From Elioraea tepida (GTDB lineage Bacteria > Pseudomonadota > Alphaproteobacteria > Acetobacterales > Acetobacteraceae): a stretch of DNA of 64,000 nucleotides. Positions 18,485-64,000 of this stretch are shown here, piece after piece (position 1 is the first letter of the stretch; every line of letters starts with the position of its first letter). The stretch lies in contig NZ_CP076448.1 in the NCBI RefSeq assembly GCF_019203965.1, positions 3,277,282-3,341,281 of the forward strand, in the 5' to 3' direction. The notes beneath the pieces are model-generated. The model did not search any database. It saw only the letters and a list, made by a program, of their open reading frames with translations, and was not told where the DNA came from. The translations under genes and the position numbers were made by a program.

Positions 18485-20484
18485 ATGCGCGGGCCGATGC
18501 TGCCGATCATCCAGACCGAGAAACGGACGATGGGCCTCTCGTCCGGGCCCTTTCCGCCCGACTCGCTCATCCCCGAGCGCGTCACCGGCAGCGAATCGCT
18601 CTGCGGTCTGTTCTCCTACGACATCGATTTCCTGACCGACCAGACGGAGCTGAAACCCGCCGAGCTGCTCGGCAAGAAGCTCGGCCTCGAACTCGGCAAG
18701 GGCACGCCCGATCGGGCCTTCATCAACGGCCACGTGGTGCGGCTTTCGCTCGGGGACTATCTCGGCGGCAACTACGGCATGGCCTATCGCCGGATCTCCT
18801 GCCGGATCGTTCCGTGGTTCTGGTTCCTCGACCATACGACCGACTGCCGCGTCTTCCAGAACCGCACCGTCCAGGAGATTCTCGAGACGCTGTTCGGCGA
18901 CGCCGGCTTCACCGACGACAAGTTCTTGCTCCGGGGCAGCCTCGCGCCGCGCACCTACGTGCTCCAGTACAACGAGACCGACTACGCCTTCGCCTGCCGG
19001 CTGATGGCCGAGGAGGGCCTCGTGTGGTGGGTGGCCTCGACCGCCGAGACGCATACGCCGATCATCACCAACCACAATGACGGTCTGAGGGCCTCGGGCG
19101 CCCAGCCCTTGAAGCTGCCGCCGCGCGAGGCGTCGCAGGTGCGCAACAGCTTCGACAGCCTTCGAGAGACCCACGTCTGGAAGCCCGGCAAGGTTGCGGT
19201 CAGCGACTCAGAGTTCCGAGCGATCTCGACCGATCTGACGACAGAGAAATCCTCGCTGCTCGGCCTGCCGCTCGCCGACAAGTTCGAGATCTTCGTCTGG
19301 CCCGGGCGCTTCCCCACAAAGGGAAAGGGCGACAGCCCGGCGGCCCGCAGCGACGGCGAGCCGCTCGCGACACACCTCGTCGAGGCGCTCGAGTCGGAAG
19401 CGACACGGCTCGAATCGCGACGGATTCCCACGCGCCGATGCTCGGCGTGCCGATCGAGATCCTCGACAACGCCCAAGCCTCAAGCGGAACGCCCTACCTG
19501 ATCGAGCGGCTGAGCCGAACGATGGCGGATGAGATCCATCTCAATGCGCGCGCCATTCCCGTCTGTCGCACCACGGTGAGCGCCTTCCCGGCCGGCACGA
19601 CCTATCGGATGCGGCCCGTTCCCGAACGGCCGAAGCTCCCGAACCTGATGCTCGGCAGGGTCGTCGGGCCGAAGGGAGAGGAGATCCATGTCGACGAGTA
19701 TGGCAGGGTGAAGGTCCAGTTCCTGTGGGACCGTCTCGGCGAAGGCGACGAAAACGCCTCGTGCTGGATGCGGCTCTCCCAGGCCTGGGCCGGCAGCGGC
19801 TTCGGGATCATGGCGCTGCCGCGGATCGGCATGGAGGTGATCGTCGGCTTCCTAGACGACGACCCCGATCACCCGGTGGTGCTCGGCTGCCTGCACAACA
19901 ACGAGAACAAGGTGCCCGTCGCGCTTCCCGAGAACAAGACGCAGACGGGGATCGTGACCAGGTCCTCGACGGGCGGGGGAAGCTCCGACTACAACGCGCT
20001 TCTGTTCGAGCACAAGGCAGGGTCGGAGAAGGTAACGTTCCAGGCACAGAAGGACTACGAGCGCCTTGTCAAGAACAACGAGAAGGTGACGATCAAGGCG
20101 AATCGCACGCTGCTGATCGAAGGCAAACAGAAATATGATGTCAAAGGCGACTATGACCTGACGGTGCAGCAGGGCAACCACAAGGTCGAGATCAGCAAGG
20201 GCAAGTTCGACACCAAGGTCGGCATGGGGAACATGTCGGTCAAGGTGTCGATGGGCAACCTCTCGACGAAGGTCAACCTCGGCAAGATCGACAGCGAGGC
20301 GATGCAGTCGATCGAGTTCAAGGTGGGCACCAGCTCGGTCAAGATCGACCAGATGGGCGTAACCATCAAGGGCATGATGATCAAGATCGAAGGCACCGTC
20401 ATGCTCGAGGCCAAGGGCCTGATGACGAAGGTGAGCGGCGACGGGATGATGATGCTGAAGGGCGGCATCATCATGATCAATTGA
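18485..20484 (+). pseudogene. vgrG: Type VI secretion spike protein VgrG, interrupted by a frameshift near 19420-19440
   Basis: N-terminal part (18485-19501 frame) has gp27-like VgrG motifs (LFSYDIDFLT, RAFINGHVVRLS, DYAFACRLMAEEGLVWWV). The remainder (19438-20484 frame) has the gp5/beta-helix part (GRVKVQFLWDRLGEGDENASCWMR, VLGCLHN, repetitive KV..G C-terminus). The two halves are in different frames. Confidence 0.8.
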
Positions 20485-20491
20485 GGCGTGC

Positions 20492-21079
20492 ATGACGCCG
20501 GAGCGGCCGCCCGTGAAGCTCGCCTCCGCTGCTCCGCGGACGGTTCTGGAGCGTGCCGATCTCGCGCCGGAGGCGGCGGCTCTGGCAGGCGGCGCCTCGG
20601 ATTCGGCGGCGGCGCTGCGGCGGCTGATCGAGGCCGGCATGCTGGCCGATGCCGCGCGCTTCCTCGCCCACGCCCTGCCGAAGCGCGAGGCGGTGTGGTG
20701 GGCCTGCATGTGCGCACGAGCGACCGCCCCTGAGCCGCCACCGCCCGATGCCGAGGCATTGGCCGCCGCCGAGGCGTGGGTGCGTAAGCCTGACGAGGAG
20801 CATCGTCGCGCCGCCATGGCGAAGGCCGAAGGCGCGGGCTTCCGCAGCCCCGAGGCCTGGGCCGCGGTCGCCGCCTTCTGGTCGGGCGGCAGCATGGCCC
20901 CGGCCGGCCAGCCGGTCGTTCCGCCAGCAGAGCATCTTACTGGTGTCGCGGTCGCCGGTGCGGTCTCGCTCGCTGCCGTCCGGCGCGAGCCGGAGAAGGC
21001 GGAGGCGACGCTGCGGCGCTTCCTCGACAGCGGGCTCGACATCGCCGCCGGCGGTGCGGGCCGGATCGCCCCAGCCTGA
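20492..21079 (+). CDS. Hypothetical Ala-rich protein between vgrG and PAAR (possible T6SS adaptor/accessory)
   Basis: 195-aa ORF tightly spaced in the vgrG-PAAR operon. No recognisable motif; family not identified from sequence alone. Confidence 0.45.
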   Translation: MTPERPPVKLASAAPRTVLERADLAPEAAALAGGASDSAAALRRLIEAGMLADAARFLAHALPKREAVWWACMCARATAPEPPPPDAEALAAAEAWVRKPDEEHRRAAMAKAEGAGFRSPEAWAAVAAFWSGGSMAPAGQPVVPPAEHLTGVAVAGAVSLAAVRREPEKAEATLRRFLDSGLDIAAGGAGRIAPA

Positions 21080-21091
21080 GGAGGCAGCCCC

Positions 21092-21994: not shown

Positions 21995-23500
21995 TCATCT
22001 CCCTGCCGTCTCGGATGCCTTCGCTCCGCCGCCCGTGGTGCGGAACACGATCCCGGACGACAGGGATCTCGACCTGCCCGGGCCGTCGAGCCCGGCGCCC
22101 GAGGCGCCGCCGCCACCCGTGCCAGAACAGCGCGATCCTTTCACTGCACCGGCGGCAGGCGCTCCGCCGAGGCCGGCGGCGGCTCCGGAGGCCGTTCCGC
22201 CCTCGAGCATGATGACCGGGCACGGCCTTGCCGCCACCGTTGCGCCGCCGCGTGCGCCGACCGCGCCCTCGCCGCCCGGGGGCCAGGCCGGAACGGGTTC
22301 GGCCGGCGAGGGCGAGCGGCTGCTGGCGACGGGCCCCGGCGCAGCGGGCGTGACGGGCGGGGGCGTGGCGAGGGCGACGGGGGGCGGCGGGCTCGGCGTC
22401 GTCGCGGCCGGAAGCGTTGCCTGGGCCGTTGCCTGCGGCGCCGCCGGCTCAGGCGTGGGAGCGTCGGTGCCGCGCCCAAACAGGAGGAAGGCGGCAACGC
22501 CCGCCGCGACCACGGCGCCCGCGCCCCCCGCCACAAGGCCGAAGGGAAGCCCCTTCTTCGTGACGGGCGGCTGCGTCCCAGACCGGACGGGGACCGAAAC
22601 GGCGGGGCGGTCGGACGGCGCGCTGGCAACGACGGTCACTTCGGTGTCAGCCCCGCCGAGCAGGCCAAGCAGCGGGTCGGAGGCCTCCGCCTCGTGCATC
22701 GCTTCGGCAATCGCCTCGCGGAACGCTGCCGCGGTCTGGAATCGTTCGGCGGGACGCTTCGCCATCGCCTTTCGCACCACCGCGTCGAAAACGGGCGGAA
22801 CCGAGCCCGCGATCTCGGACGGCCGCGGCGGCTCGACATTCAGCACCTTGTGCATGATCGCGGTGAGGTTGCCCTCGAAGGGCTTGTCGCCGGTGAGCGA
22901 CTGATAGAGCACGACGCCGGCGGAATAGAGGTCGGTGCGCGCGTCCGCCGGCTCGCCGCGGAACTGCTCGGGCGACATGAGGCGGGCGTTCCGAGCACCG
23001 TTCCCGCCTACGTCATCGTCGAACTCTCGATCCGGGCGATGCCGAAATCGGCGACCTTCACCTGCCCGCTCCCGGTGAGCATCATGTTGGCAGGCTTGAT
23101 GTCGCGGTAAACCACGCCCTTCTCGTGCGCATGCCCAAGCGCGGCGAGGAGCTCGTCCATCACCCGAGCGACCTGCGGCAGCGGCAGCCGCTCGCCGGCA
23201 TCGAGGCGTGTCTCCAACGATCCGCCGTCGACATGCTCCATCACGATGTAGGCGAGATCGCCCTCTTCGCCGTAGTCGTAGACCGCGACGATGTTCGGGT
23301 GCGAGAGCCTGCCCGCGGCCTGGGCCTCGCGCTTGAACCGGGCGATCTCCTCCTGCGCCTCGGCATCGTGCGCGTCGAGCGTGACGGTCTTGATCGCGAC
23401 GATCCGGTCGATCACCGGGTCGCGCGCGCCACACCGTGCCCGCCGCACCCTTGCCGATGGCCGTGATGATCTCGTACTTGCCGAGACGTTCGAGGTTCAT
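21995..23500 (-). pseudogene. Membrane Ser/Thr protein kinase (PpkA-like) with two frameshifts in the catalytic domain
   Basis: Start MNLERLGKYEIITAIGKGAAGTVWRAR (Gly loop) at 23500. Subdomains II-VII (VAIKTV, HPNIVAVYDY, HRDIKPANMML, VKVADFGIA) lie in a different frame (ORF 23008-23448). The original frame then resumes (MSPEQFRGEPADARTDLYSAGVVLYQ), followed by a TM segment and a Pro/Ala-rich tail. Confidence 0.7.
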
Positions 23501-23725
23501 GCGCAAGCCCGTCTCCGTCGCCTCCTTGGTCCTAGACCGGTGCGGGGGCGACGCGGAAGAATGACGGGCGGCGCTCGCGGCCGGAGCTGCCTCAGAGGCT
23601 CGTCGTGCCGAGCGCCTCATGTCTACAGCGGCTGAAGGACTCCACTCGGCTCCACGCGCGAGGCGGCGAAGACAGCCGCGCGCGCCCTTCCGAAGGGGAG
23701 GGATGGGAGACATGGGGAGAAACGG

Positions 23726-24997
23726 ATGAGAAGGTGATTCCTCGCGGCTGCGGCCGCGGTCGCGATGGCTCTTGCCGTGCCCGGGGCGGCCTCGGCGCAG
23801 CAGGAACCTATTCAGATCGGCATCCTCGTCGCCCTCGAGGGCGCGTTCGCGGAAGGCGGCAGGGACGGCATTCGCGGCATCGAGCTCGCGCTGCGGACCG
23901 TCAACAACACGATCGCGGGCCGGCGGATCGAGACCATCATCGCGCCGACTGACACCCGCCCCGACACCGCCGTGCGCCAGGCACGCAAGCTGATCGAGCA
24001 GGACCGGGTCGACTTCGTGATCGGCCCGCTCTCCGGCTCCGAGGGGATCGCGATCCGCGACTACGCCAAGACGGTTCCCGACAGGACCTTCATCAACGGC
24101 GCCTCCGGCGCGCTTGAGGCGACCTGGGTCGATCCGGCGCCGAACTTCTTCCGGTTCCACACGCACGGGCCGCAGTGGGGCGCGGGCTTGGGCGAATACG
24201 TGGTCCGCACCAAGGGCTGGCGCCGGATCTCCACCGTCGCGGCCGACTACTCGTTCGGCCACACCAACTTCATGGGCTTTGCGATCGACGTCTGCCGCAA
24301 CGGCGGCGACATCGTGCGCCGCTTCTGGGTGCCGCTCGGCTCGGCCGATTTCGCTGCCGTGATCGCGCAGCTCCCCGACGACGTCGACGCCATCTATCTC
24401 GGCCTCGGCGGCACGGATGCGATCAACTTCCTCAACCAGTACGCTCAGGCCGGGTCGAAGATGAACTTCATCGGCGGCACGATCATGGCAGACCAGACCG
24501 TTCTGACCTCGCGCGGGCGCGCGCGCGAGGCGCTGATCGGCACGCCGACCTCCGGGATGAAGTCGGACGAGAACCCCGATCCGGCGTGGCAGGAGTTCGT
24601 GCAGCGCTACCGCGCCGCCTATCCGGAGGGGCAGCGCTTCCCCTCGCCGACGATCTTCGCGACCGGCTACTACCTCAGCACGCTCGCGGCGGTCGAGGCG
24701 CTGAAGAAGGGCAATGGCGATCTCTCAGGCGGGCAGAGGGCGTTCCAGCAGGCGCTTGCGACGCTCGAGCTTGACACGCCGCTCGGCAAGATCAAGCTCG
24801 ACGAGACGCGCCAGGCGATGGGGCCGGTGTTCGTCAACGAGGTGACAGCGCGGCCTGACGGCACACTCGACAACCGGATGGTCAAGGGCGTGGACAACGT
24901 GTCGCAGACGCTCGGGCTGCCGGTGGAGGAGTTCCGGGCGCTCGGCCTACCCTCGCGCGACACGCCCGACTGCGCACGGCTGAGGACGCGCCGCTGA
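23726..24997 (+). CDS. livK: Branched-chain amino acid-type ABC substrate-binding protein (LivK-like); in-frame TGA at codon 4 of the predicted signal peptide
   Basis: A GGAGA RBS plus ATG at 23726 gives MRR[TGA]FLAAAAAVAMALAVPGAASAQ... The ORF track begins at the internal ATG at 23765, which would leave no signal peptide. PBP type-1 fold (Leu/Ile/Val-BP family). Confidence 0.7.
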
Positions 24998-25011
24998 CCC
25001 ACGGCGGGCGC

Positions 25012-25051
25012 GCGGCGAGCGGGCAAGGCACATGATCTTGTCCGCCGCCGC
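25012..25051 (+). terminator. GC-rich imperfect hairpin downstream of the binding-protein gene
   Basis: gcggcgagcgggcaag-gcacatgatc-ttgtccgccgccgc, a ~14-bp stem with a 10-nt loop. No U-tract, as is common in high-GC alphaproteobacteria. Confidence 0.3.
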
Positions 25052-25149
25052 GCGAACTCGCAACCCGAGAGCAGCGACGGGAACGGCGGAGGCAGGGTGA
25101 CAAAGCTGTTCGTTCGACCGCGGCTGCCTGCCGCCGCGCCGAGGCTCGT

Positions 25150-26163
25150 GTGACCGCTCTCGCGCGCGCCAACCCGGTGGTCGTGCTCGTCGTCGCGATC
25201 CTCCTGGCGTTCGTGCTCTGGCTCATCTTCGCACCCTGGCCGCCGGGCGTGACGGCCGTGATGGGCCCGAAACGGGTGTTCCTGAGCGCGCTGCTCTCGG
25301 GCATCACGCTCGGCGCCCTCTACTTCCTGGTCGCAAGCGGCTTCACGCTGATCTTCGGGCTGATGCGCAACGTCAATCTCGCGCACGGCTCGCTCTATCT
25401 GCTCGGCGGCTATCTCGGCTTCGAGATCGCCGACAGGACGGGGGCGTGGCTGCTCGCCTTCCCGGTCGTGGTCGTGCTCGTTGCGCTGCTCGGCGTGGTG
25501 CTGCAGCATCTCGTGTTCCGCCGGATGGAGGGCGAGGAGCTGCGGCAGACGCTAGTCACGATCGGCCTCTCGATCGTGATCGCCGACATCCTGCTGTGGA
25601 TCTGGGGCGGCAAGTCCTACCAGATCCTCACGCCCGACTTCCTCGCGGGGCCGATCGATCTGCCGCTCGTGACGGCGATTCGCTCCGACGGCACGGCCGT
25701 CTATCTCCGCTATCCGCGTGTTCGGATCTGGATCCTGATCGCCGCCATCGTGGTTGGTGTGGCGATGTGGCGTGTGATGACCCGCACGCGCATCGGCATG
25801 CTGATCCGCGCTGGGGTGGATGACCGCGATATGCTCGCCGCCTCCGGCCTGCCGATCCAGGCTATGTTCGTTCTTGTCTTCGCCTTCGGCGCGGGACTTG
25901 CTGGGATCGCGGGAATCATCGGCGGCACCTTCCAGTCGCTCGCCCCGGGCGAGGACACGCGGTTCCTGCTCGCGAGCCTCGTGGTGGTGATCGTGGGCGG
26001 GATGGGGTCGTCCCCCGGGGCGGCGCTCGGCGCCCTGATCATCGGGCTCGCCGAGCAGCTCGGCGTGGTCTACGCCCCGACCTACTCGGTCGTGTTCACC
26101 TTGCTCATCATGGCGGCGGTGCTCGCGTTCCGGCCGCAGGGCCTGCTTGGGCGGAAAGGCTGA
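25150..26163 (+). CDS. livH: Branched-chain amino acid-type ABC permease (LivH-like)
   Basis: 337-aa polytopic ORF with the LivH-family pattern (NLAHGSLYLLGGY ... GGMGS). Confidence 0.85.
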   Translation: MTALARANPVVVLVVAILLAFVLWLIFAPWPPGVTAVMGPKRVFLSALLSGITLGALYFLVASGFTLIFGLMRNVNLAHGSLYLLGGYLGFEIADRTGAWLLAFPVVVVLVALLGVVLQHLVFRRMEGEELRQTLVTIGLSIVIADILLWIWGGKSYQILTPDFLAGPIDLPLVTAIRSDGTAVYLRYPRVRIWILIAAIVVGVAMWRVMTRTRIGMLIRAGVDDRDMLAASGLPIQAMFVLVFAFGAGLAGIAGIIGGTFQSLAPGEDTRFLLASLVVVIVGGMGSSPGAALGALIIGLAEQLGVVYAPTYSVVFTLLIMAAVLAFRPQGLLGRKG

Positions 26164-27222
26164 TGGCGGTGGCCGGAGAGGCGCGGACGGCTGCGAGCGA
26201 GATGCCGTTCGGCGCGCTCGGCCGCATCCCTGCCGCGATCTGGGCGGTTGCGGCGCTGCTCCTGCTGATGCCGACATTCGCCAACAATTTCGTCCTGTTC
26301 CAGGTGTTCGGCTGGACCTTCATCCTCGGCATGATTGCCCCGTCTCTGATGTCCCTCGCGGGCTATGGCGGCATGGTGAGCCTGATCCAGATGACTGTCG
26401 CGGGGCTTGCCGGCTACATGGTCGCGATCCTTGGGCCCTCGGGCACGGAGCAGGTGAGCCTCGGCCTTGCGTGGTGGATCACCGTTCCGGCTGCGATCGT
26501 CGTCGCGACCCTGTTCGGAACGCTCGTCGGCGCGCTCGCGGTGCGCACCGAGGGCATCTACACAATCATGATCACGCTCGCGATCGCGGCCGCCTTCTTC
26601 TATTTCACGCGGCAGAACTACACGATCTTTCAACGGGTACTCTGGCTTCAGCCTGGTGGTTCCACCGCGCCTGTTCGGGATCGACTGGCGCCAGCCAATC
26701 CCCTTCTACTATCTGAGCCTCGGCTGTGCCGCGCTTGCCTACGCCGCGGTGGTCTATGTCTCGCGCGCGCCGTTCGGGCTTGCGCTCCAGGGCGTGCGCG
26801 ACAACGCCCGCCGCATGGCGGCGCTCGGCTACAACGTCGTCTGGCACCGGATCCTCGCCTACAGTTTCGCTGCCGTGATCGCCTCCTTCGGCGGAATCCT
26901 GCTCGTCTGGCAGAACGCCCAGATCGCACCTGGAACGGCCGGCATCCCGGCGGTCATCGACATTCTCGTGATCGCCGTGGTGGGCGGGATGCGCCACCCG
27001 ATCGGCCAATTCATCGGCGCCTTCATCTATGTGCTGCTCAGTTCCTTCGCCCCCGATGTGCTGACGACCTTCGGCCTCGCTCCCGATCGCTTCAAGCTGC
27101 TCGTGGGCTTGGGCTTCCTTGCGGTCGTGTATTTCTGACCGGATGGGGTGCTCGGGCTGTGGGAAAGGGCGCGGCGAAAGATGCGCGAACGCACTGACCC
27201 GCTCACTGGGCAGCCGCGATGA
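26163..27222 (+). pseudogene. livM: ABC permease LivM-like; frameshift near 26628-26633 and in-frame TGA at 27136-27138
   Basis: N-part ...FFYFTRQNYTIF in one frame; continuation NGYSGFSLVVPPRLFGIDWRQPIPFYYL in another (+1 in a cttt run). After TGA 27136 the frame continues with the family-typical PDGVLGLWERARRK and ends in an ATGA overlap with livG (27219-27222). This argues the TGA is secondary. Confidence 0.75.
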
Positions 27223-28013
27223 TCGAAGCTGGGCCGGACACCGCCGCTCGGCTCGGCTCGGTCAGCAGCGGGAACGCGCTCGATCTGCGCGGCGTGACAC
27301 GGATGTTCGGCGCGCTTGCTGCGATCGCCGACGTGACGATGACGGTCCGCCCTGGCGAGCGCTGCGCCGTGCTCGGCTCGAACGGTGCGGGCAAGACGAC
27401 GCTGTTCAACTGCATCACCGGGGACATCCTTCCGAACTCGGGCACAATCAGACTGTTCGGCGAGGACGTGACCCGCTTCCCCCCGCACGAGCGGATCCGG
27501 CGCGGGCTGCGCCGCACCTACCAGATCTCACTCCTGTTCGGGGGCCTCACGGTCGCCGACAATGTAGATCTCGCCTGCCGAGGGGTCTCGCGCTGGAGGT
27601 TCTCGCTGTTGCGGCCGCGCCGTGGCGACCCGCTTCTCGCGCGGACGGACGAGCTGATCGAGGCCGTGCATCTGACGCGCGCGCGCGGCCGGCTCGTCTC
27701 GGAACTCTTCTACGGACAGCAGCGCCAGCTCGAGATCGCTCTCGCGCTTGCCGGAGCTCCGCGGTTCATTCTCTTCGATGAACCTGCCGCCGGGCTGTCA
27801 CCGACCGAGCGACGCGAGCTCATCGAGATCCTGACGAACCTGCCGCGTCATATCGGGTTCATCATCATCGAGCACGACATGGATGTCGCGCTGCGCGTCG
27901 CCGAGAGCGTGTCGATGATGCACAACGGCCGCGTGTTCAAGGAAGGGACGCCGGCCGAGATCGAGAACGACTCGGAGGTTCAGGCGCTCTATCTCGGAGG
28001 GGCGCATGGCTGA
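27219..28013 (+). CDS. livG: ABC transporter ATP-binding protein (LivG-like)
   Basis: Walker A GSNGAGKTT, signature YGQQRQLEIALAL, Walker B ILFDEPAAGL. Confidence 0.85.
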   Translation: MIEAGPDTAARLGSVSSGNALDLRGVTRMFGALAAIADVTMTVRPGERCAVLGSNGAGKTTLFNCITGDILPNSGTIRLFGEDVTRFPPHERIRRGLRRTYQISLLFGGLTVADNVDLACRGVSRWRFSLLRPRRGDPLLARTDELIEAVHLTRARGRLVSELFYGQQRQLEIALALAGAPRFILFDEPAAGLSPTERRELIEILTNLPRHIGFIIIEHDMDVALRVAESVSMMHNGRVFKEGTPAEIENDSEVQALYLGGAHG

Positions 28014-28853: not shown

Positions 28854-28951
28854 GTAGAGCAGCTCGAGCGCATGGCCCGGGTGTTGACGGCGCAATCACC
28901 CGGGCCGGGCACGACGGCGCACGCCGAGCTTCGTCCGCTCGCGAGCCCGGG

Positions 28952-31027: not shown

Positions 31028-31057
31028 GACGGTCGGAGGAGTACGGAGCATGATGCC

Positions 31058-33374: not shown

Positions 33375-33377
33375 GCC

Positions 33378-33815
33378 ATGCCGCGCGTTTACGTCTCCTC
33401 GGTGATCGACGCCCCGGCCGCCAAGGTGGGGGAGCGGATCCGTGACTTCAATGCGCTTCCGCGCTGGCATCCACGGATCCGCGACAGCCGGATCGAGAAC
33501 GGCGAGCCCTCGGACAGGGTGGGCTGCGGGCGCGACTTCCACCTCCAGAATGGCGACAGGATCCGCGAACGCCTGCTCGGCCTTTCCGACGACGACATGT
33601 TCTGCACCTACGCGATCCTCGAAAGCCCGATGCCGCTGACGGACTATGTCGCGACCATCCGCCTCAAGCCGATCACCGATGGCGATCGCACCTTCGCGGA
33701 ATGGACGGCAGAGTTCGAGTGCGCGCCGGAGGCGGCGGCGGAGCTGCTCGCCGGGATCGGGCAGAACGTGTTCCAGGCGGGCTTCGACGCCCTGAAGCGG
33801 CAGCTGGCGGGCTGA
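33378..33815 (+). CDS. SRPBCC-superfamily ligand-binding protein (CoxG/polyketide-cyclase-like)
   Basis: 145-aa ORF paralogous to the next gene. It sits upstream of a cox-like M/S/L/D/E cluster, where CoxG-type SRPBCC genes typically occur. Confidence 0.7.
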   Translation: MPRVYVSSVIDAPAAKVGERIRDFNALPRWHPRIRDSRIENGEPSDRVGCGRDFHLQNGDRIRERLLGLSDDDMFCTYAILESPMPLTDYVATIRLKPITDGDRTFAEWTAEFECAPEAAAELLAGIGQNVFQAGFDALKRQLAG

Positions 33816-33819
33816 GGCG

Positions 33820-38279: not shown

Positions 38280-38282
38280 ACG

Positions 38283-51801: not shown

Positions 51802-51806
51802 TCGCC

Positions 51807-54112: not shown

Positions 54113-55845
54113 CGAACGCCCTCGGTGATGGTTCCCTCCGGCAGGTCCTCGAAGGGCGGGGCGAGCCGGCGCAGATGGGAGGGGATCGGGCGGTCGCCCC
54201 AGCCCGGGAGAAGAACGACGAGCCCGTCGATGAGCAGCATCGGGTCGCGCTCCCGGTCGCGTCCGAAATCGGCGCGCTTGAGCGTGTCGCGGTCGCGCAG
54301 GACATAGACCGTGCCGGGCTCGTGACGGCCGGAGAAGAGCTGCGCGGCGATCTTCTCTCGGAGCGCGGCGATCGCGCCCGGGTCGATCCGCGCCAGATAG
54401 ACGGCATCGGTCGTCATGCCGTGACGTATGGCGAAGCGCGCGGTGGATTCCCAGTGAAGCCCGCGGTCGGCCGCCGGCACCGCACGGATCCGCGTGTAGG
54501 CCTTGCCGATCTCGTCCCAGAACGGATCGGGCAGGCGCTCGGGCTGGATCCGCGGCTCCTTGATCACGAGCGATTCGTAGTGGCGGATCGAGGGCAAAAG
54601 ATCGACGAGCTGAACGGCGGCGAGTGCGGCAAAGAGAAGGGCGGCGAGCCGGGCACGGTTCGGCCCGAGCGCGCGCAGCGTCACGATCGCCGCCGAAGCG
54701 AGCAGGGCATAGGCGAGCGGCCAGGCGAAGCGGGTCGAGGCGCGCAGGATTCCGGCAAGCCTCAGCATCCAGGGCGGCGGCTCGAACAGGGTGATCCGCA
54801 CGCCGGCGATGGAGGGCATGTGCGTCATCGCGAACAGGATCAAGGCGATCAGAACGACCACAAGCGGCCAGCTGCGCATGAGCGCGGCACGGATCCCGAG
54901 GTCGCGCCGGAGACACACGGTCACGAGCCCGGCGGCGAGCAGCAGGATCCCCCCGAGGCCAAGATAGTCGCTGCCCGACTCGCCGTGGCGCAGGTCCGGG
55001 ATCGGCGGCAGGATCGATCCCCACAGGGTGCTGTCGAACCAGGCGAGCACGTTGAACCCGAGATCTCCGTAGCCCCAGGCCTCGAGACCGGCGCGCAGAA
55101 CGAAGAACCCGGCGGCCCAGAGCCCGGCCGCGCCGAGCGCGGGCACGAGCACGGCCTCGGCAGCACGCCCCAGGGCGGGGGCGGCGATGGTCCGACGCAG
55201 CCAGTCAGCTCCCCACAAGGCGCCGACCATGACGAGCAGGTAGGAATGCACGAGGCTCGTGGCGGAGACGAGCAAGGCCCAGGCCAGAGGGCGCCGCGCG
55301 CCGCGCCCCTCCGTGAAGCAGAGCAGGAGGGCTGCGAGTACCGTCCACTGCCCCGCGAGCGCGAGGTGGCCCGCCATGCGCATCAGCATCATCGGCTGCA
55401 GGGCGAACAGCGCCGAGGCACCGAGCAGCGCGAGCGTTCCGGCCGGGGTGATGCCGATGCCGGACAGCGCGGCGAGTCTGAGCCCGAGCACCGCCTGCGC
55501 CATGCCGCAGAAGAGGAGCCACATGCCCCAATACTGTTCGACTGTGACGAGGCTCCGGATCGCCTTCAGCGGGAGCGCGATGAGCGGGATGGTGTCGGCG
55601 TAGAAGATCGAACTCGACAGCTCGAGACCGTAGTTGGGGTTCAGCCCGGGCGGGATGTGCCAGGCGTCACGGCGGAACCAGCTCCAGCCGAGCCAGTACT
55701 GCACCGGGTCGGGCCCCATGGGGCCTGCGAGCATCCATCCCGTGGCGGTCGGCGACAGGACTCCCTCCCAGAACTCCCACGGTGTGGGGCCGAACGACAG
55801 CACCACCACCGCCGCACCGATAGCGGCCGCGGCGAGATGAGCCAT
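54109..55845 (-). CDS. Large polytopic membrane protein, paralog of 43714-45336
   Basis: Start proposed at MAHLAAAAIGAAVVVLSF. Shares the W-H-x-PP / ADxIPLxALxLK N-terminal block with the paralog. The track ORF extends to 56037. Confidence 0.55.
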   Translation of the reverse strand: MAHLAAAAIGAAVVVLSFGPTPWEFWEGVLSPTATGWMLAGPMGPDPVQYWLGWSWFRRDAWHIPPGLNPNYGLELSSSIFYADTIPLIALPLKAIRSLVTVEQYWGMWLLFCGMAQAVLGLRLAALSGIGITPAGTLALLGASALFALQPMMLMRMAGHLALAGQWTVLAALLLCFTEGRGARRPLAWALLVSATSLVHSYLLVMVGALWGADWLRRTIAAPALGRAAEAVLVPALGAAGLWAAGFFVLRAGLEAWGYGDLGFNVLAWFDSTLWGSILPPIPDLRHGESGSDYLGLGGILLLAAGLVTVCLRRDLGIRAALMRSWPLVVVLIALILFAMTHMPSIAGVRITLFEPPPWMLRLAGILRASTRFAWPLAYALLASAAIVTLRALGPNRARLAALLFAALAAVQLVDLLPSIRHYESLVIKEPRIQPERLPDPFWDEIGKAYTRIRAVPAADRGLHWESTARFAIRHGMTTDAVYLARIDPGAIAALREKIAAQLFSGRHEPGTVYVLRDRDTLKRADFGRDRERDPMLLIDGLVVLLPGWGDRPIPSHLRRLAPPFEDLPEGTITEGVR

Positions 55846-56002
55846 CAGGCCGGGGATCTGGGGGGAGCGGTCGGTGGTCACGCTGCGCGGTCGGCGGTGA
55901 GGCGAGCGGGTCGGCCAGGAGCGGGCGGGACCATGGCGGGCGATTGCGGCGCGGATCGGGCGGGACTGGGGTCCGAGACCGAGCTGTAGGGAGGGGCGGG
56001 TC

Positions 56003-57249
56003 ATGGCGCGCCGCGCCGCGTGGCGTTCGGGCGGCATCGAGTCGCGCTACGCTTGGGTCAGGCTCGCTGCCGCGCTCACGCTCTCCACGGTCGGCAGCGT
56101 CGGGATGTGGTCGGTCGTGGTGATCCTGCCGGCGGTGCAGGCGGAGTTCGGCACCGACCGCGCGAGCGCCTCGCTGCCCTAGACGCTCGTGATGCTCGGC
56201 TTCGTCGGCGGCAGCGTGATGATGGGCCGGCTTGCCGACCGCTTCGGCGTCATCGTGCCGGTGGTGACCGGCAGCCTTTCGCTCGGCGTCGGCTATACAG
56301 CGACGGCCGCCGCGCCGACCATGTGGGTGTTCGCACTCGCAAGCGGCGTGTTCATCGGCCTCTTCGGTGCCTCGGCTGTTTTCTCGCCGCTGGTGGCCGA
56401 CATCTCCCGCTGGTTCGACCGCAATCGCGGCATCGCGGTCGCGCTCTGCGCAAGCGGCAACTATCTCGCCGGAGCGGTCTGGCCGCCGGTCCTGCAGGCG
56501 CTGGTCGCGGGCGCAGGGTGGCGGACGGCGCAGCTCGTTGTCGGCGGGGTGTGCGTGGTTGCGATGCTTCCGCTTGCGCTCGTGCTGCGTCAGCCGGTGC
56601 CGGCTGAGGTTCCCCGCAAGGCCTCGGCTGCGGCGTCGCGCGAGCGGGCCGAGACGCGCCCGCTCGGCCTTGCGCCGAACACGCTCCAGGGGCTGCTCGT
56701 CGTTGCCGCGCTCGGATGTTGCGTTGCGATGTCGATGCCGCAGGTCCACATCGTCGCCTACTGCGTCGATCTCGGCTACGGGCCCGCGCGAGGAGCGGAG
56801 ATGCTCGCGCTGATGCTCGGCTTCGGCATTGTCAGCCGGCTCGCAAGCGGCGTCATCATGGACAGGATCGGCGGCCTCGCGACGCTGCTTTTCGGCTCGC
56901 TGCTTCAGGCGGTCGCGCTCGCGCTCTTCCTGCCGTTCGACGGGCTCACCGCCCTCTACATCGTGTCGGCGATCTTCGGCCTGTTCCAGGATGGACTCGT
57001 TCCGGCTTACGCCTTCATCGTGCGGGAATACTTCCCGGCCAGCGAGGCCGGAGACGGGTCGGGATCGCGATCTCGGCCACACTCGCCGGCATGGCGCTCG
57101 GGGGCTGGCTGTCGGGTGCGATCTTCGACCTCGCGGGCTCGTATCAAGCGGCCGTGCTCAACGGCCTTGCCTGGAATGCGATGAACGTGGCGATCGTCGC
57201 GTGGCTGCTCCGCCGGTCACTCGCCGAGCCACGGCTTGCGTCCGCCTGA
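56003..57249 (+). pseudogene. MFS transporter (oxalate/formate antiporter-like) with in-frame TAG at 56178-56180 and a frameshift near 57040-57050
   Basis: MARRAAWRSGGIESRYAWVRLAAALTLSTVGSVGMWSVVVILPAVQAEFGTDRASASLP[TAG]TLVMLGFVGG... The stop is at the conserved Tyr of the LPYTL motif. The C-terminus (RVGIAISATLAGMALGGWLSGAIFD...) is in another frame. Confidence 0.65.
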
Positions 57250-57652
57250 GCGACGCTGCGGCCGCATCGCTTTCGGCCTGTGCACCGAAGCCGGCGCGCT
57301 CGGGTCCGCTGGTGCGACGAACTCCGTTCGCGCCGTCGCGTCGACGGCGCCTGGCGTCGGCGGGGACGGGAGCGGAGGTGCGGCCGACCGGGGTTTCGCA
57401 ATGACAGAAGGACGATCCCGTCCGCGAGCGGTTCCGGCCCGAGCGGGCAACGCGAGGCGACAGGGCTTCGCGCTGGGCCGCGCGCAGCATTCGGCGCGGG
57501 CAAGCTGTGCCGCACGGGTTGGCTCATGTGAAGGCCTCGGGCGGTCGCGCAGCCAACGACATCGCGGCCAGCCGTGCTTGCGGTTGCCTTGCTCGCGTCG
57601 CTACACTTCGTGCCAATAACGACGGAGAGGCTTGGGAGACGTCCTCGTGGGC

Positions 57653-58456
57653 ATGGCGCCAATCCTGGAGGCAACGCGCGTCTCGCTGCGCTTCGGCGGC
57701 GTTCGTGCGCTCACGGATGTCTCCTTCGCCGTCCGACCGGGCGAATTGTTTTCGATCATCGGCCCGAACGGAGCGGGCAAGACCTCGATGGTCAATTGCA
57801 TCTCGGGCCGCTACCGCCCGACGGAAGGCGCGATCCGCTTCGAAGGGCGAGACATCACGGGCCTAAGCCCGAACGCCCGCGCTGCCCTCGGCATCGGCCG
57901 CACCTTCTAGAACGTCGCGCTGTTCGGGCACATGAGCGTGCTCGACAACATCCTTGTCGGCCGCCATCACCTGCTTCGCCACGGCTTCCTGACGGGGATG
58001 CTCTATTGGGTCGGGGGCGCGCAGCGTGGGGAACTGCGCCACCGGCGCGAGGTCGAAGAGATCATCGACTTCCTCGAAATCCAGCACGTTCGAAAGGCAC
58101 AGGCGGGAACGCTGAGCTACGGGCTGCGCAAGCGCGTCGAGCTCGCGCGCGCGATCGCGCTGAAGCCGAAACTGATCCTGCTCGACGAGCCGATGGCAGG
58201 CATGAATCTCGAGGAGAAGGAGGACATGGCCCGCTTCATCGTCGACCTCAACGAGGAATGGGGGATGACGGTGATCATGATCGAACACGACATGGGGGTG
58301 GTAATGGACATCTCCCACCGCGTCATGGTGCTCGACTTCGGCAAGAAGATCGCGGAAGGGCGCCCCGAGGAGGTTCTCGCAAACGAGCATGTGAAGCGCG
58401 CCTATCTCGGCGAGGTGGACGAGCTCCTGGTCGACGAGGCCGACCCTGTGACATGA
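57653..58456 (+). pseudogene. livG: ABC transporter ATP-binding protein (LivG-like) with in-frame TAG at 57907-57909
   Basis: GPNGAGKTS...LGIGRTF[TAG]NVALFGHMSVLDNI... (Gln-expected position, CAG to TAG). Signature LSYGLRKRVELARAI and Walker B LILLDEPMAGMN. A TTG at 57632 is an alternative start. Confidence 0.65.
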
Positions 58457-60398
58457 CGCGCCCCGCGCCGCGCCTGCCCGATACCCCCCTGTACGATACG
58501 CTTCCAAAACTGCTTGCGCTGCAGGCGCGGGAACATGGCTCCGAGACGGCGCTGCGGGAGAAGGACTTCGGCATCTGGCGCACCATCACCTGGGCGGAAT
58601 ACAACGCGCGCACGCGCGCCTTGGCGCTCGGGCTCCGCGCGCTCGGGATCGGGCGAGGCGAGACGGTTGGGCTGATCGGCGACAATCGTCCCGAGTGGGT
58701 GATGGGCGACATCGCCGCACACGCGATCGGGGCGATGTCGCTTGGGATCTACCGCGATGCGCTCGACGACGAAGTTGCCTATCTGCTCGCCCATGCCGGC
58801 GCCTCGGTGGTGCTTGCCGAGGACGAGGAGCAAGTGGACAAGCTGCTTGCCATCGGTGATCGCGTTCCGGGGCTTCGGCACATCGTGTTCGCCGATTCCC
58901 GCGGCATGCGCAAGCATCGCGATCCGCGTCTGATGCCGCTGTCCGATCTTGTCGCGCGCGGCGAGGCCGCGCACGCCGCCGAACCGGGGGTGTATGACGA
59001 TCTCGTCGCGGCAACGACGGGCGAGGCGGTGGCGATCCTTTGCACCACCTCCGGCACCACCGCCCGCCCTAAGCTTGCGATGCTCACCGCGGGCGCTTTG
59101 ATCCGCCATTGTGCGACCTATCTCCGCGCCGATCCCAAGGGCCCCGAGGACGAGTATGTTTCGGTCCTGCCGCTGCCGTGGATCATGGAGCAGGTCTACG
59201 CGCTCGGTTTCGCCCTTTTGACGCGCATGAAGGTGAACTTCGTCGAGGAGCCGGAGACGATGCTCGCCGACTTTCGCGAGATCGGGCCCACCTTCGTTCT
59301 GTTTGCCCCTCGCGTCTGGGAGCAGATCGCGGCCGATGTCCGCGCGCGCGTCATGGATGCCTCCCCGTTCAAGCGGCGGATGTTCGCTCTCGGGATGAGG
59401 CTCGGCTTGCGCGCACTCGACGCGGGGAAGAGGTCATGGCTCGCGGACATGCTCCTGTTCCGGGCGTTGCGCGACCGGCTGGGGTCTCCCGCATCACATC
59501 GGCCGCGACGGGAGGCGCGGCGCTCGGGCCGGACACGTTCCGCTTCTTCCTCGCGCTTGGGGTTCCCCTGCGGCAGCTCTACGGGCAGACCGAGCTCCTC
59601 GGCGCCTATACGCTGCACCGCGAGGGAGAGGTGGACTTCAACACCGTGGGCGTACCCTTCGATGCGACGATCGAGGTGCGCATCGACAAGCCCGATGCCA
59701 ACGGGGTCGGAGAGATCGTCACGCGCCATCCGAACTGCTTCGCGGGCTATTGGCGCTCCGACAACCCCTCGGGCGAGCTGCAGGACGGCTGGCTGCACAC
59801 CGGCGATGCCGGCTATTTCGACCAGAAGGGGCATCTTGTGGTGATCGACCGGATCAAGGACATCGCCGCGACCGCGCGCGGGGACCGGTTCAGCCCGCAA
59901 TTCATCGAAAACAAGCTGAAGTTCAGCCCCTACATCGCCGAGGCGGTGATCCTCGGCGACAGGCGTGACTTCCTCGCGGCGATCATCTGCATCCGGTATG
60001 CTGTCGTCTCGAAGTGGGCGGAGCGTCAGCGCATCGCCTTCACCACCTACAGCGATCTCTCGGCGAAGCACGAGGTCGCAGCGCTCCTGCGCACCGAGGT
60101 CGAGCGCGTGAACGCCTCGCTCCCTGAGGGGCAGAGGATCCGGAAGTTCCTGCTGCTCTACAAGGAGCTCGACGCCGACGACGACGAGCTCACACGCACG
60201 CGCAAAGTGCGTCGCGGCGTTATCGCGCAGAAATATCGCGACATCATCGACGCGATCTACGCCGACAGAACCGCCATTCCGGTCGACACGGTCATCAGGT
60301 TCCAGGACGGCAATACGCAGTGCATCCGCACCACGCTCGCGGTCATCGACCTCCTGCCCGGCGCGGCCGCTGCCGCTCTTGCGGAGGCGGCGGCATGA
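58453..60398 (+). pseudogene. AMP-dependent synthetase/ligase (long-chain acyl-CoA ligase-like) with a 1-nt deletion near 59478-59482
   Basis: N-part (ILCTTSGTTARPK AMP-binding motif) is in one frame. C-part (FSRITSAATGGAALGPDTFRFF...GWLHTGDAGYFDQKGHLVVIDRIKD) is in another. ggggtctcc versus expected ggggttctcc. ATGA overlaps at both ends. Confidence 0.7.
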
Positions 60399-61288
60399 AC
60401 TGGGAGCTTCTGTTCCAACTCACTCTCAACGGCGTGATCGTCGGCGCCCTCTATGGCGTCGTTGGGATGAGCTTCGTCCTCATCTACAATGCGAGCCAGG
60501 TCGTGAATTTCGCCCAAGGAGAGTTCCTGCTGATCGGCGCCTGGGCCTGCTGGTGGCTGCTCACCACCTTCCAGATCCCGTTCGTGTTGGGCTTCCTCGT
60601 CACGCTCGTCTTCATGACGGTGTTCGGCATCCTGCTTCAGGTGGTGGTGCTTCGGCCGCTGATCGGCGAGCCGGTGATCAGCGTCATCATGGTCACGATC
60701 GGCCTGTCGATCTTCTTCCAGGCGTTGATGAAGTGGATGTTCGGCGTGTTTGCCCAGCCCTTTCCACGCATCTTCGCGGCCGACCGGGTCAACATCGCCG
60801 GCCTCGAGGTGCAGACGGTCTATCTGCTATCGCTCGCGATCTCGGTCGTCATCATGGCCGCCTTCGCCTGGTTCTTCACGGTCTCCAAGCACGGGCTCGC
60901 GATGCGCGCCACCGCCTTCGACCAGCAGGTGGCGCAGTCGCTCGGGATTTCGGTGCGGCAGGTGTTTGCGATGTCGTGGGCAATCTCGGCGGTGGTCTCG
61001 GCGGTCGCGGGCGTCGTCGTCGGGGTGGTGAACGGCGTCTCCTCTGCGCTCTCGTTCTACGGCATCAAGGTGTTTCCGGCCGTGATCCTCGGCGGGCTCG
61101 ACAGCGTGGTCGGCGCCGTTCTTGGAGGCCTGATCATCGGCTTGCTCGAGAATCTCGCCCACTCCCTCGACAGCGAGGTGCTGCAGTGGGGCAACATGTT
61201 CCAGATCGCGCCATTCTACGTGCTGATCGTCATCCTGATGATCAAGCCGTACGGCCTGTTCGGCACGAAGACCATCGAGCGGGTGTAG
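60395..61288 (+). CDS. livH: Branched-chain amino acid-type ABC permease (LivH-like)
   Basis: MNWELLFQLTLNGVIVGALYGVVGMSFVLIYNASQVVNFAQGE..., the typical LivH N-terminus. Confidence 0.8.
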   Translation: MNWELLFQLTLNGVIVGALYGVVGMSFVLIYNASQVVNFAQGEFLLIGAWACWWLLTTFQIPFVLGFLVTLVFMTVFGILLQVVVLRPLIGEPVISVIMVTIGLSIFFQALMKWMFGVFAQPFPRIFAADRVNIAGLEVQTVYLLSLAISVVIMAAFAWFFTVSKHGLAMRATAFDQQVAQSLGISVRQVFAMSWAISAVVSAVAGVVVGVVNGVSSALSFYGIKVFPAVILGGLDSVVGAVLGGLIIGLLENLAHSLDSEVLQWGNMFQIAPFYVLIVILMIKPYGLFGTKTIERV

Positions 61289-61289: not shown

Positions 61290-62509
61290 GTGATGGCCGG
61301 TATCGCGATGACACCCTGCGGCAACTTCCGGGAGAGCTACCGGGCCGATACGACGATCTTCCCGACGAGGCTTTCGCGCGCCTTTGCCGCGGGCTCCATC
61401 GCGGCGCTCTGCCTCGTCCCGCTGACCGGCGATCGCTACATCCTCAGCCTGATGATCCAGGCCGGCTATCTCGGCATCGCCGCGCTCGGCCTCAACATCC
61501 TCGTCGGGTTCACGGGGCAGATCTCGATCGGCCATGCCGCGTTCTTCGGGGTCGGCGCCTTCTCCTCGGCCTGGCTTGTCGAGCACGGCGTGCCGGTCGC
61601 GGTCGCGATCCTGCTCGCCGGGCTGATGACGACGGCGGTCGGCATGGTGTTCGGTCTGCCGGCAGCGCGGCTGAAGGGCCTCTATCTCGCGATCGCCACG
61701 CTTGCTGCGCAGTTCATCATCGAGGACTTCTTTGCCCGCGCGCGCTGGTTCACCGGCGGCGTCGCCGGCCGCGTCACCGAGCCCTTCTCGCTGTTCGGCG
61801 TCCGCTTCGACAGCAACGAGACCTACTTCTACGTCGTGCTGTTCTACGTCGTGGTGATGTTCCTGTCGGCGTCGAACCTGATGCGGACGCGCGACGGGCG
61901 GGCCCTCGTGGCGGTGCGCGACCACTACCTCTCCGCCGAGATGATGGGAATCAATCTCACCTACTACCGCACCCCTTCTTTCGGCCTCTCGTCGTTCTAC
62001 GCCGGGATCGGCGGGGCGCTCTATGCGCACTACCTCCTGTTCGTCTCGGTCGAGGCCTTCACCATCCTCTTCTCGATTCAGTTTCTTGCGATGATCATCA
62101 TCGGCGGGCTCGGCTCGGTGATAGGCTCGATGATGAGCGCGGTGTTCATGACGCTCCTGCCCGAGGTGGTGCAGTCTTTCGCCAATATGCTCGCCGGCAG
62201 CGTGATGACCGTGCGCTCGGCCTCGGCGCTGCGGTAAGTTACCTCCGCGAGATGACGATCGGGGCGGCGATCGTGCTGTTCCTGATCTTCGAGTCGGACG
62301 GGCTCGCGCATCGCTGGAGGCTGATCAAGGCGTATTGGAAGCTGTATCCTTTTTCCCATTCAGGGGAGGGGGAAGGCCGCGGCAGCGCGGAACAACAACG
62401 TCCAGGAGGAGAGAGATGCACGCGAGATCCATGCTTCTTTCGGCTGCGGCGGCGGTCATCGTCGCCGGGGCGGCCTCGGCGCAGCAGCGAATTCCGGTTG
62501 GGCACCTGA
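61290..62509 (+). pseudogene. livM: ABC permease LivM-like with a C-terminal frameshift (~62190-62240); true stop uncertain
   Basis: Body intact to ...LLPEVVQSFANML. The family-typical C-terminus (SYLREMTIGAAIVLFLIFESDGLAHRWRLIKAYWKLYPF) is in another frame that then runs without a stop into the next gene start region. Confidence 0.6.
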
Positions 62510-63705
62510 TGGACAATTCGGGTCCGACCTCGGATGTCGGCGTGCCGTTCGGCCAGGGGGTCGCCGATTCGCTCGCCTGGGTGAACCGGGTGCGAAACGG
62601 TGTGGCCGGCCGCCAGCTCGTCGTCTCCGGCTTCGACTAGGGCTACCAGGCGCCGCGCGCGATCGCGCAGTACCAGGCCTGGGTGCAGCGTGAGCGCGTT
62701 GTTGCCATCCAGGGCTGGGGAACGGTGGACACGGAGGCGCTGATCACCTTCGTCACGCGCGATCGGATCCCCTACATCTCCGGCTCCTACTCGGCAGCGT
62801 TGACCGACCCGACCGGCCGTGCCTCGCGCGCCGACAAGGCCGCACCGTTCAACTTCTTCTACGGTCCATCCTACTCGGATGCGCTGCGCGCGATGATCAT
62901 CTGGGCGGCGGAGGACTGGAAGGCGAGGGGCGGGCAGGGGCGGCCCAAATACGTCCACATGGGTGCCAACCATCCCTATCCGAACTCGCCGAAGGCGGCC
63001 GGCGAGGCGCTTGCGGCGGAGCTCGGCTTCGAGGTCTTGCCGGCGATCCAGTTCGCGCTGACGCCGGGCGACTACACGGCGCAGTGCCTGACGTTGCGCA
63101 ACGCCGGCGCCAACTATGCCTATCTCGGCAACACCGCGGGCTCCAACATCTCGGTGCTGCGCGCCTGCCAAACGGCCGGCGTTCAGGTCCAGTTCACCGG
63201 CAATGTGTGGGGCATGGACGAAAACGCCATGAAGGCGGCAGGCACGGCCGCCAACGGTGTTGTTTTCCCCCTCCGCACCGCTGTTGTCTGAGGTGGAGAG
63301 GCGCCCGGGATGGCAAATGTGCGTGCGATCAGCCAGGGCGGCGCGACGCCGCAAACCGAGTATCGCCCCGTGCACTATCTCGCCGGAATCTGCTCGGCGA
63401 TGATCATGGTCGAGGCGATGGAGAGCGCGGCGGCCCATGGCGGTGCCATCACCGGCGAGCGGATCCGAGACGGGTTCTATGTGCGGAAGGACTGGGTTCC
63501 GGCCGGGTTCGAGGGCGTGTGCAATCCGTCGACCTTCACGCCCGAGGATCATCGCGGCCAGATGCGTGTGTCGCTGTTCCGCGCCGTTGTTTCGGGCGAC
63601 ACGACCCAAGGCTCGGTCGCGGAGCTGATTCGCGCCGGTACGATGAAGCTCGAGCCGGTGACGACCATCACGCTCGAGCGCCGTCAGGACTGGCTCGGCT
63701 GGTGA
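62416..63705 (+). pseudogene. livK: Branched-chain amino acid-type ABC substrate-binding protein (LivK-like) with in-frame TAG at 62638-62640 and TGA at 63289-63291
   Basis: GGAGGAGAGAG RBS plus MHARSMLLSAAAAVIVAGAASAQQ signal peptide. ...VVSGFD[TAG]GYQAPRAIAQYQ... and ...GVVFPLRTAVV[TGA]GGEAPGMANVRAIS...; all three pieces are in the same frame. Confidence 0.65.
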
Positions 63706-63763
63706 GGGAAGGGCTCGGCAGGGCGGCAGGGAGACCTGCCGCCCAGCCGGCCGCAGGCGGCTG

Positions 63764-64000
63764 ATGGACACCGTCGCCGATCATGCCGCCCCGCGCGCGC
63801 CAAGGCTGGTCGATACGCTGCCGGCGCTGCTCGAGGTGAACAACATCGAGGTCGTCGACAACGACGTGATCCTCGTCCTGCGCGGCCTGTCGCTGAAGGT
63901 GCCGGAGGGGCACATTGTCGCCCTGCTCGGTGCGAACGGGGCAGGCAAGTCCACCACCCTCAAGGCGATCTCGGGCCTGCTCAAGACCGAAGAGGGCGAG
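63764..64000 (+). CDS. livF: ABC transporter ATP-binding protein (LivF-like), 5' fragment (continues beyond the window)
   Basis: [71 protein letters not shown] (Walker A). Confidence 0.7.

Follow-up and report, generated by a model that had tools for sequence, protein, structure and literature searches.

Three accessory gene sets of Elioraea tepida appear to decay as pseudogenes beside constrained neighbors

The genome of Elioraea tepida strain MS-P2 contains a 64-kb stretch (contig NZ_CP076448.1, positions 3,277,282 to 3,341,281; hereafter the window) in which many accessory genes are broken by premature stops and frameshifts. Three gene sets of the window appear to have lost constraint and to be evolving as pseudogenes. 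One is a vgrG-PAAR-FHA-kinase group. Another is a block of 18 genes from LivJ to a gluconolactonase-isochorismatase fusion, in which the 16 genes from LivM onward form a conserved module, and the third is an MFS / Liv-transporter / acyl-CoA-ligase set. Judging from sequence comparisons, we put the probability that this reflects relaxed selection and neutral decay, rather than poor assembly, at about 0.9. An earlier note on this DNA, made from its letters, had proposed relaxed selection or ongoing decay, and this reading is now supported by lesions shared with other assemblies, by the spread of variation over codon positions, and by the load of amino acid replacements. Its alternative, a locally poor assembly, does not explain the overall pattern and is possible only for some of six lesions that the isolate alone carries.

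The window carries 24 lesions that break open reading frames (ORFs) in 18 genes, consisting of 12 frameshifts and 12 premature stops (2 TAA, 6 TAG, and 4 TGA). Nineteen of them could be placed to the base. The earlier note had counted about 26 in about 20 genes; its lesions were found at or near the places given and every gene that it listed is affected, but the total is lower. Lesions occur from 18.5 to 43.6 kb and again from 56 to 64 kb. None lies in the first 17.7 kb, where all 16 genes between 238 and 17668 span their Pfam profiles end to end, as the earlier note had also found for this part. From 18.5 kb on, many Pfam profiles run on into another frame or across an in-frame stop. A second lesion-free region is the polysaccharide cluster at 43.7–56 kb (12.3 kb), where Pfam coverage is again complete. 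Lesion-free constrained coding sequence totals 29.7 kb. If the 24 lesions were spread uniformly across the 62.6 kb of coding sequence, about 6.7 would be expected in the first block, fewer than the roughly 10 previously estimated, and the probability of finding none there is 4e-4. For the core and the polysaccharide block together the probability is 2e-7. Confinement to the accessory part thus holds in that the core is clean, but not for the accessory part throughout. Because the core and the polysaccharide cluster are both lesion-free, the pattern is a mosaic in which accessory genes are not uniformly affected.

Coding frames were tracked by codon usage and every ORF fragment was then scanned against Pfam. 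Between 25.8 and 43.6 kb, lesions were placed by protein-to-DNA alignment and by gene-by-gene DNA alignment with an intact syntenic copy from a sister lineage (contigs L001–L004), which covers this whole interval at ~82% nucleotide identity. For LivJ codon 4, relatives were aligned instead; the kinase and vgrG lesions were located by three-frame translation, and others by comparison to contigs of the same species. Composition-based frame tracking over-called in this window of ~70% G+C. A frameshift at 37094, inside the intact gene for the N-terminal part of CoxL, and spurious ones at 57058 and 62214–62430 were removed on homologue and Pfam evidence.

To a large extent the lesions recur in independent assemblies of the same species. 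Metagenome contigs, here called wild contigs, came from more than 15 ENA samples (k141), from JGI (Ga0308396/7), and from Logan (SRR8863438/41); at least those from ENA are short-read k-mer assemblies. They were found through exact matches to the products of Frr, a glycosyltransferase, and a truncated 89-aa SRPBCC fragment, and were compared with the window by pairwise alignment. The wild contigs are collinear with the window and 99.3–99.7% identical to it; over the core (1–10813), six of them align without gaps at 99.7%. At least 13 of the 24 lesions, including polymorphic ones, are found at the same bases. Frameshifts at 28377, 29140, 29936, 34809, and 39623 and stops at 30611, 34087, 38388, 42638, and 56180 are the same in every covering contig, while the +T at 26628 and the TAG at 40845 are polymorphic in the wild. 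The vgrG frameshift is also shared, judged from half-length wild products. Two kinase frameshifts and the TGA at 63289 are probably shared as well, going by similar fragment lengths. Another six occur in the isolate only: TGA 27136, TAG 28851, –2 at 32821, +G 37720, TAG 57908, and –T 59484. The earlier note had recommended inspecting a second assembly of the same strain; the comparison made here, with metagenome contigs of the species, recovers most lesions, leaving six private and two uncovered.

Wild contigs have lesions of their own that the isolate lacks. Four indels (–1, –1, +1, and –5) interrupt the CoxL N-terminal gene, and CoxM has a –2 at 34307 and a –1 at 34842. The CoxL C-terminal gene has a +A after 37790 in place of the isolate's +G at 37720. 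Wild-only stops are a TGA in LivG (27411), a TAG in LivJ (24746), and a TAG in the amidohydrolase (40368).

All interrupted genes described below are on the plus strand except the kinase. In the 18-gene block, LivJ begins ATG AGA AGG TGA, so that codon 4 (23735–23737) is a stop; DNA alignment with relatives gives TCA at this codon in contig L166 and GCG in E. thermophila (L165). LivM carries a +T frameshift (TT to TTT) at 26628, identified by alignment with L001. It is present in two of seven wild contigs, and the other five have an intact 352-aa LivM. A TGA at 27136–27138, where the population has TCA, is private to the isolate. Next, the LivF-UPF0261 fusion has lost a single base relative to L001 beside a C run at 28377; the window agrees here with all seven wild contigs, and a 158-aa fragment length is common among wild members. 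The fusion also contains the private TAG at 28851–28853, where both population and sister have CCG. Five isolate-private differences fall within 34 nt here (28838–28868), including the adjacent CC to TA that makes the TAG, which suggests either a change of several nucleotides at once or a small patch of recombination. UPF0261 sequence is further disrupted by a –1 at 29140 and by a +1 at a G7 run at 29936. Both were placed against L001 and are shared with wild contigs, the latter with seven. The earlier note had pointed to homopolymers as the seat of several frameshifts, consistent with either slippage or miscalling. These sites are real, but since 28377 and 29936 are identical in all seven covering contigs, miscalling in this assembly does not account for them, and the +T at 26628 is polymorphic.

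Downstream, the PEP-hydrolase-like gene has a TAC to TAA change at 30611–30613 in eight of eight wild contigs. A 42-mer spanning this TAA had no exact match in species-representative genomes, where the source genome seems to be absent or masked; a protein-based scan of those genomes returned only other species, at most 84% identical. In flotillin, one GC unit is gone from a GC repeat (–2 at 32821–32822). This lesion is private to the isolate, and wild flotillin is intact at 772–816 aa. The repeat region of the same gene (31911–32194) shows an in-frame 132-nt difference between the isolate and most wild contigs; L188 has the isolate's length. The second SRPBCC gene has a TAC to TAG change at 34087–34089 in ten of ten contigs, a non-independent sample given that these contigs were retrieved through this very fragment; the exact 89-aa truncated product is recorded on 8 JGI, ENA, and Logan contigs. 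CoxM has a –1 frameshift at 34809, shared with wild contigs. The CoxL C-terminal gene has the private +G (G4 to G5) at 37720. CoxD ends early at a TAA (38388–38390; TAT in the sister) in eight of eight wild contigs, and its exact 35-aa truncated product occurs on 25 JGI contigs. CoxE has a –1 relative to L001 at 39623, also shared with wild contigs. A TGG to TAG change in the amidohydrolase (40845–40847) is segregating, with TAG in 11 of 14 contigs and TGG in three. The gluconolactonase-isochorismatase fusion is stopped by a TGA at 42638–42640 in all 14 wild contigs covering it.

The other two sets show the same kinds of damage. In the first, vgrG (18485–20484) is split by one frameshift near 19413 into an N-terminal ORF (18485–19501) and a C-terminal ORF (19438–20484). 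The frame that holds positions 2–263 of the Phage_GPD profile is not the one that holds the Gp5/OB domains. Both half sequences occur exactly in JGI metagenome gene calls, and in the 27-member cluster at 90% identity the 15 listed members are 153–356 aa, none of them full length. The Ser/Thr protein kinase (21995–23530, minus strand) has frameshifts near 23430 and near 23025, and its HRD motif has become YRD. Pkinase profile positions 24–149 and 164–256 fall in different frames, and three-frame translation shows G-loop, core, and C-lobe alternating between frames; wild fragments of the kinase are 135–164 aa. In the third set, the MFS transporter has a TAG at 56180–56182 in six of six wild contigs, and all wild products listed are 330 aa. 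The second LivG has a private CAG to TAG change (57908–57910). The acyl-CoA ligase has lost a T at 59484, splitting the AMP-binding profile between frames. This deletion is private to the isolate; the T is present in each of six wild contigs. A second periplasmic binding protein is interrupted by TAG 62638 and TGA 63289 (62638–63291), so that Peripla_BP_6 positions 2–46, 51–246, and 269–339 lie in three consecutive ORFs of a single frame. Its wild relatives are mostly 101–183-aa fragments. A missing C at 60361 was considered as a further ligase frameshift and rejected, as the window has a normal stop/start junction there. The +C of the wild contigs is the derived state; all six carry it, it removes the ligase stop, and in L179 and L180 it fuses the ligase to the downstream permease in a 945-aa ORF.

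One interruption in the region is not a lesion. The frameshift that the earlier note had placed in coxL near 37094–37256 is a natural gene split (566 aa and 340 aa) conserved in the relatives examined. The CoxL N-terminal gene (35526–37256) has an intact ORF in the isolate with its natural stop at 37254–37256, and among 120 listed homologues of 513–577 aa the same stop is used. Sister contigs L001–L004 have a separate 340-aa MoCoBD_2 gene after a 566-aa CoxL N-terminal gene, and in 46 more distant loci the two halves are again separate matches. An open frame does not imply constraint in this gene, which has 18 private replacements at conserved residues compared with one in the sister.

Variation within the species argues that the lesion-bearing blocks are no longer under purifying selection. 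Variable sites at codon positions 1:2:3 number 90:81:96 in the cluster at 26163–43570 (15.3 per kb), 14:12:13 in LivJ–LivH (19.5 per kb), and 21:21:32 in the block at 55991–60927 (16.8 per kb). The core (238–10813) has 9:1:43 (5.1 per kb) and the polysaccharide block 8:7:36 (4.9 per kb), and contrasts between lesion-bearing and constrained blocks give Fisher P values from 2e-9 to 3e-3. Even the MBL gene, whose ORF is intact, differs almost entirely by nonsynonymous changes (9 nt giving 9 aa); in the glycosyltransferases 2–4 nt differences give no amino acid change. Within the relaxed blocks the sequences differ by sixteen small indels (1–5 nt), about one per 23 substitutions, and none was found between the window and the wild contigs in 21 kb of constrained coding sequence. 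The transition/transversion ratio in the relaxed blocks is 1.1–1.3. Random miscalls are expected to give about 0.5. Relative to the wild contigs, the isolate has 174 private sites in the cluster, ~10 per kb. In the constrained blocks its private sites amount to only 0.3–1.7 per kb, so the isolate represents a natural lineage that has diverged rather than a clone that has mutated. Housekeeping neighbors and the polysaccharide cluster are under purifying selection, and this gives rise to the mosaic.

Comparison with distant orthologues points in the same direction. The cluster genes interrupted here are single uninterrupted ORFs, aligning over their full length, in L001–L004 and each is matched at more than 80% coverage in 43–46 further loci. 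Comparison with orthologous loci in relatives had been proposed in the earlier note as a check. Module 26163–43570, from LivM through the gluconolactonase-isochorismatase, is found in dozens of Alphaproteobacteria, and its order is conserved across many of them (Hoeflea, Rhodobacterales, Hyphomicrobiales, Acetobacteraceae). Its first part encodes a Liv-type transporter, the LivF-UPF0261 fusion (731 aa), the PEP-hydrolase-like protein, flotillin, and two SRPBCC proteins; its second part CoxM, CoxS, the split CoxL, CoxD, CoxE, the amidohydrolase, and the MBL protein; the gluconolactonase-isochorismatase fusion (516 aa) ends it. At residues at least 95% conserved in 43–46 syntenic orthologues, we counted replacements private to one sequence. 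The window has 90 in the cluster and sister L001 has 24, a 3.7-fold excess, and many are radical (G to D, Y to D, L to R, P to R). For the ORF-intact cluster genes alone the numbers are 30 and 8. At residues where all but one sequence agree, the window has 66 private deviations and the mean over orthologue sequences is ~7. E. thermophila (L005) has the second-highest number at these otherwise invariant cluster residues, 28. In the core (frr to lpxI; 16–79 outgroups), the window has 7 private replacements versus 13 in sister L085, all of them conservative. The contrast between cluster and core is significant (Fisher P = 1.6e-4). The probability that a substitution in the cluster genes is nonsense is ~0.024, and the replacement excess corresponds to ~1.2% unselected substitutions, which predicts ~5 stops in the cluster; seven are observed. 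Stops, missense load, and indels thus fit one unselected process.

Could the lesions instead be errors of the assembly, in the form of homopolymer indels or a poor local consensus? The closed 3,367,643-bp genome was assembled with Canu from PacBio Sequel reads, and the methods passage of the species paper gives no short-read polishing; some frameshifts sit in short runs and six lesions are private to this assembly. We nevertheless regard error as very improbable as an account of the whole. At least 13 lesions are identical in metagenome assemblies made from other samples with other pipelines, half (12 of 24) are stop-creating substitutions, no private indel of the window falls in the 21 kb of constrained sequence, and polymorphism among the wild contigs themselves is uniform over codon positions. 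Metagenome contigs that truly are error-ridden, the low-coverage long-read L167 and L168, break housekeeping genes too, whereas the lesions of the window are not blind to gene function. An origin of the private lesions and substitutions in the laboratory might be suggested by the isolate-specific status of six lesions, since the strain went through enrichment and plating. It is slightly less probable still, as 174 private cluster sites are far beyond what culture would produce. Artificial introduction of the lesions was considered as well and was dropped, since public metagenomes contain the same ones. Hardly any weight can be given to the idea that the interruptions are functional, whether through recoding, programmed frameshifting, or natural splitting. 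The CoxL boundary is a genuine split of this kind, but TAA, TAG, and TGA are all used elsewhere, orthologues are uninterrupted, lesions are polymorphic within the species, and the surrounding sequence has no codon-position bias. The interrupted genes combine homology to intact orthologues, broken frames, confirmation in independent data from the same species, and a lack of purifying selection, all of which are features expected of unitary pseudogenes.

Several observations weigh against relaxed selection and neutral decay, or narrow its reach. The six private lesions are seen only in the PacBio-only assembly and three of them are 1–2-base indels in short repeats; for that reason, error survives as an explanation for some of the six. 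TAG 28851 requires two adjacent changes from CCG within the five-difference patch and would be an unusual point mutation. LivJ TGA 23735 and TAG 62638 lie at sites without wild-contig coverage. The retrieval of ten contigs through the lesion-bearing SRPBCC fragment biases the sample toward haplotypes with that lesion. Finally, LivJ and LivM have little deep missense load, one conserved column out of 215 being replaced in LivJ and one out of 164 in LivM. Constraint was therefore probably not lost everywhere simultaneously, although the current polymorphism of both genes looks neutral despite this low load.

Under relaxed selection and neutral decay, the functions concerned would have become dispensable in the mat habitat, and constraint would have been lost before the sampled population diverged. 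An initial disabling set of at least 11 lesions, fixed among the covering contigs, is common to the isolate and every sampled wild contig. Isolate and wild lineages have since each gained their own stops and frameshifts while decaying independently, and have accumulated substitutions equally at all codon positions along with indels of 1–5 nt; the dead DNA has presumably not yet been deleted. It is also conceivable, though in our view unlikely, that in a genuine decay the earliest inactivations were favored by selection, as adaptive losses among cross-feeding members of the mat. Three gene sets with no relation to one another are dead beside intact neighbors, lesions held in common are fixed throughout the sampled contigs, and the species paper reports other losses, namely of B12 synthesis and methionine synthase. 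The later pattern of uniform codon positions and redundant lesions is expected from neutrality either way. Lesions in the amidohydrolase and LivM still segregate with intact alleles and do not suggest a sweep.

E. tepida MS-P2 (JCM 33060) was described as an aerobic phototroph from the mats of Mushroom Spring, Yellowstone. The words "pseudogene" and "frameshift" are absent from the main text of that paper, and the public annotation treats several of the fragments as ordinary proteins. It has two VgrG proteins (334 and 348 aa) at 18485–20484, a 158-aa ABC domain protein (28006–28482), an 86-aa SRPBCC protein (33820–34089), and a 198-aa VWA protein (39667–40263). Metabolic reconstructions that count these genes are consequently overestimates. 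Exact matches between ORFs of the window and annotated proteins of the species include a PAAR protein (QXM24668.1) and a DUF6931 protein (locus tag KO353_15835).

The constrained core (238–17668, plus strand) consists of frr, uppS, cdsA, dxr, rseP, bamA, skp, lpxD, fabZ, lpxA, lpxI, and an aminoethylphosphonate locus. Constrained genes of the polysaccharide cluster (45589–55990) encode a sugar transferase, a flippase, four glycosyltransferases, and DUF218, PMT-like, and DUF6311 proteins, with the same gene lengths in six wild contigs. We also considered whether the first DUF6311 gene (43717–45285, minus strand) belongs to the relaxed zone. This was rejected, as its codon-position pattern of 2:3:12 argues for constraint. 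At ~11 variable sites per kb it is as diverse as the dead blocks, with 12 of 17 sites at third positions, and in the wild the gene is called at either 464 or 573 aa. The segment 17678–18217 (minus strand), which separates the phosphonate permease from vgrG, is coding-like (~180 aa), has no Pfam match, and is ~82% identical at the nucleotide level in sister contig L085. Near LivJ, E. thermophila (L165, 11354–12634) and L166 (5035–6324) carry a second gene for a binding protein in the LivJ–LivH interval, where E. tepida has a gap of only 150 nt (24998–25149), and a 1.3-kb deletion may have occurred in E. tepida. Contig L166 (JGI Ga0598058) is the closest non-tepida relative at LivJ (91% amino acid identity). 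Upstream on it, 1–3040 holds short CitMHS and ABG_transport fragments, which may be broken genes there too.

The decay of pseudogenes once selection is relaxed is a familiar process, and this instance is apparently undescribed. We suggest, tentatively, that dead operons amounting to more than 30 kb are retained here by a free-living hot-spring mat bacterium, with ~1–1.5% neutral substitutions, undeleted, and with extra lesions segregating among co-occurring lineages. If this were true genome-wide, E. tepida would be an example of early reductive evolution outside a host, perhaps through dependence on mat neighbors. Fixed, segregating, and lineage-private lesions make up a small, clean data set on pseudogene decay in a wild population, and such tracts together with Mushroom Spring metagenomes could directly yield the spectrum of neutral mutation in situ, together with the indel bias and effective population size of a thermophile. 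E. tepida is also a predicted natural knock-out of the order-conserved transporter/UPF0261/flotillin/split-CoxL module, for which we know of no established role.

Several known systems are useful for comparison. Split large subunits exist among molybdenum hydroxylases, for example NdhL/NdhM of the nicotinate dehydrogenase of Eubacterium barkeri. As in that enzyme, the CoxL-like large subunit here is encoded by two adjacent genes, the first with hammerhead and MoCoBD_1 domains and the second with MoCoBD_2. The likeness concerns only the boundary at 37254–37258, and unlike NdhL/NdhM the C-terminal gene of E. tepida is additionally frameshifted. Frameshift artifacts are a known pitfall of long-read-only assemblies. 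The window resembles such cases in being PacBio-only, in having some homopolymer indels, and in having its genes annotated as fragment coding sequences. It differs from them in that most lesions are reproduced independently, half are nonsense, the constrained neighbors are clean, and neutral evolution is apparent at the population level.

Mycobacterium leprae and Sodalis glossinidius carry multi-lesion pseudogenes as part of reductive evolution. As is generally known of those genomes, dead operons remain recognizable, single genes carry several lesions, essential neighbors are intact, stops and small indels are about equal, and evolution is neutral, and E. tepida shares these traits. In contrast to both, E. 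tepida can be cultivated, lives freely in mats, and has a 3.37-Mb genome of 70.6% G+C. Its decay is known from this 64-kb window, where no insertion elements were seen. The decay is also young by comparison, with ~1–1.5% unselected substitutions and a codon-usage signal that is still strong, and polymorphism at its lesions persists in the natural population.

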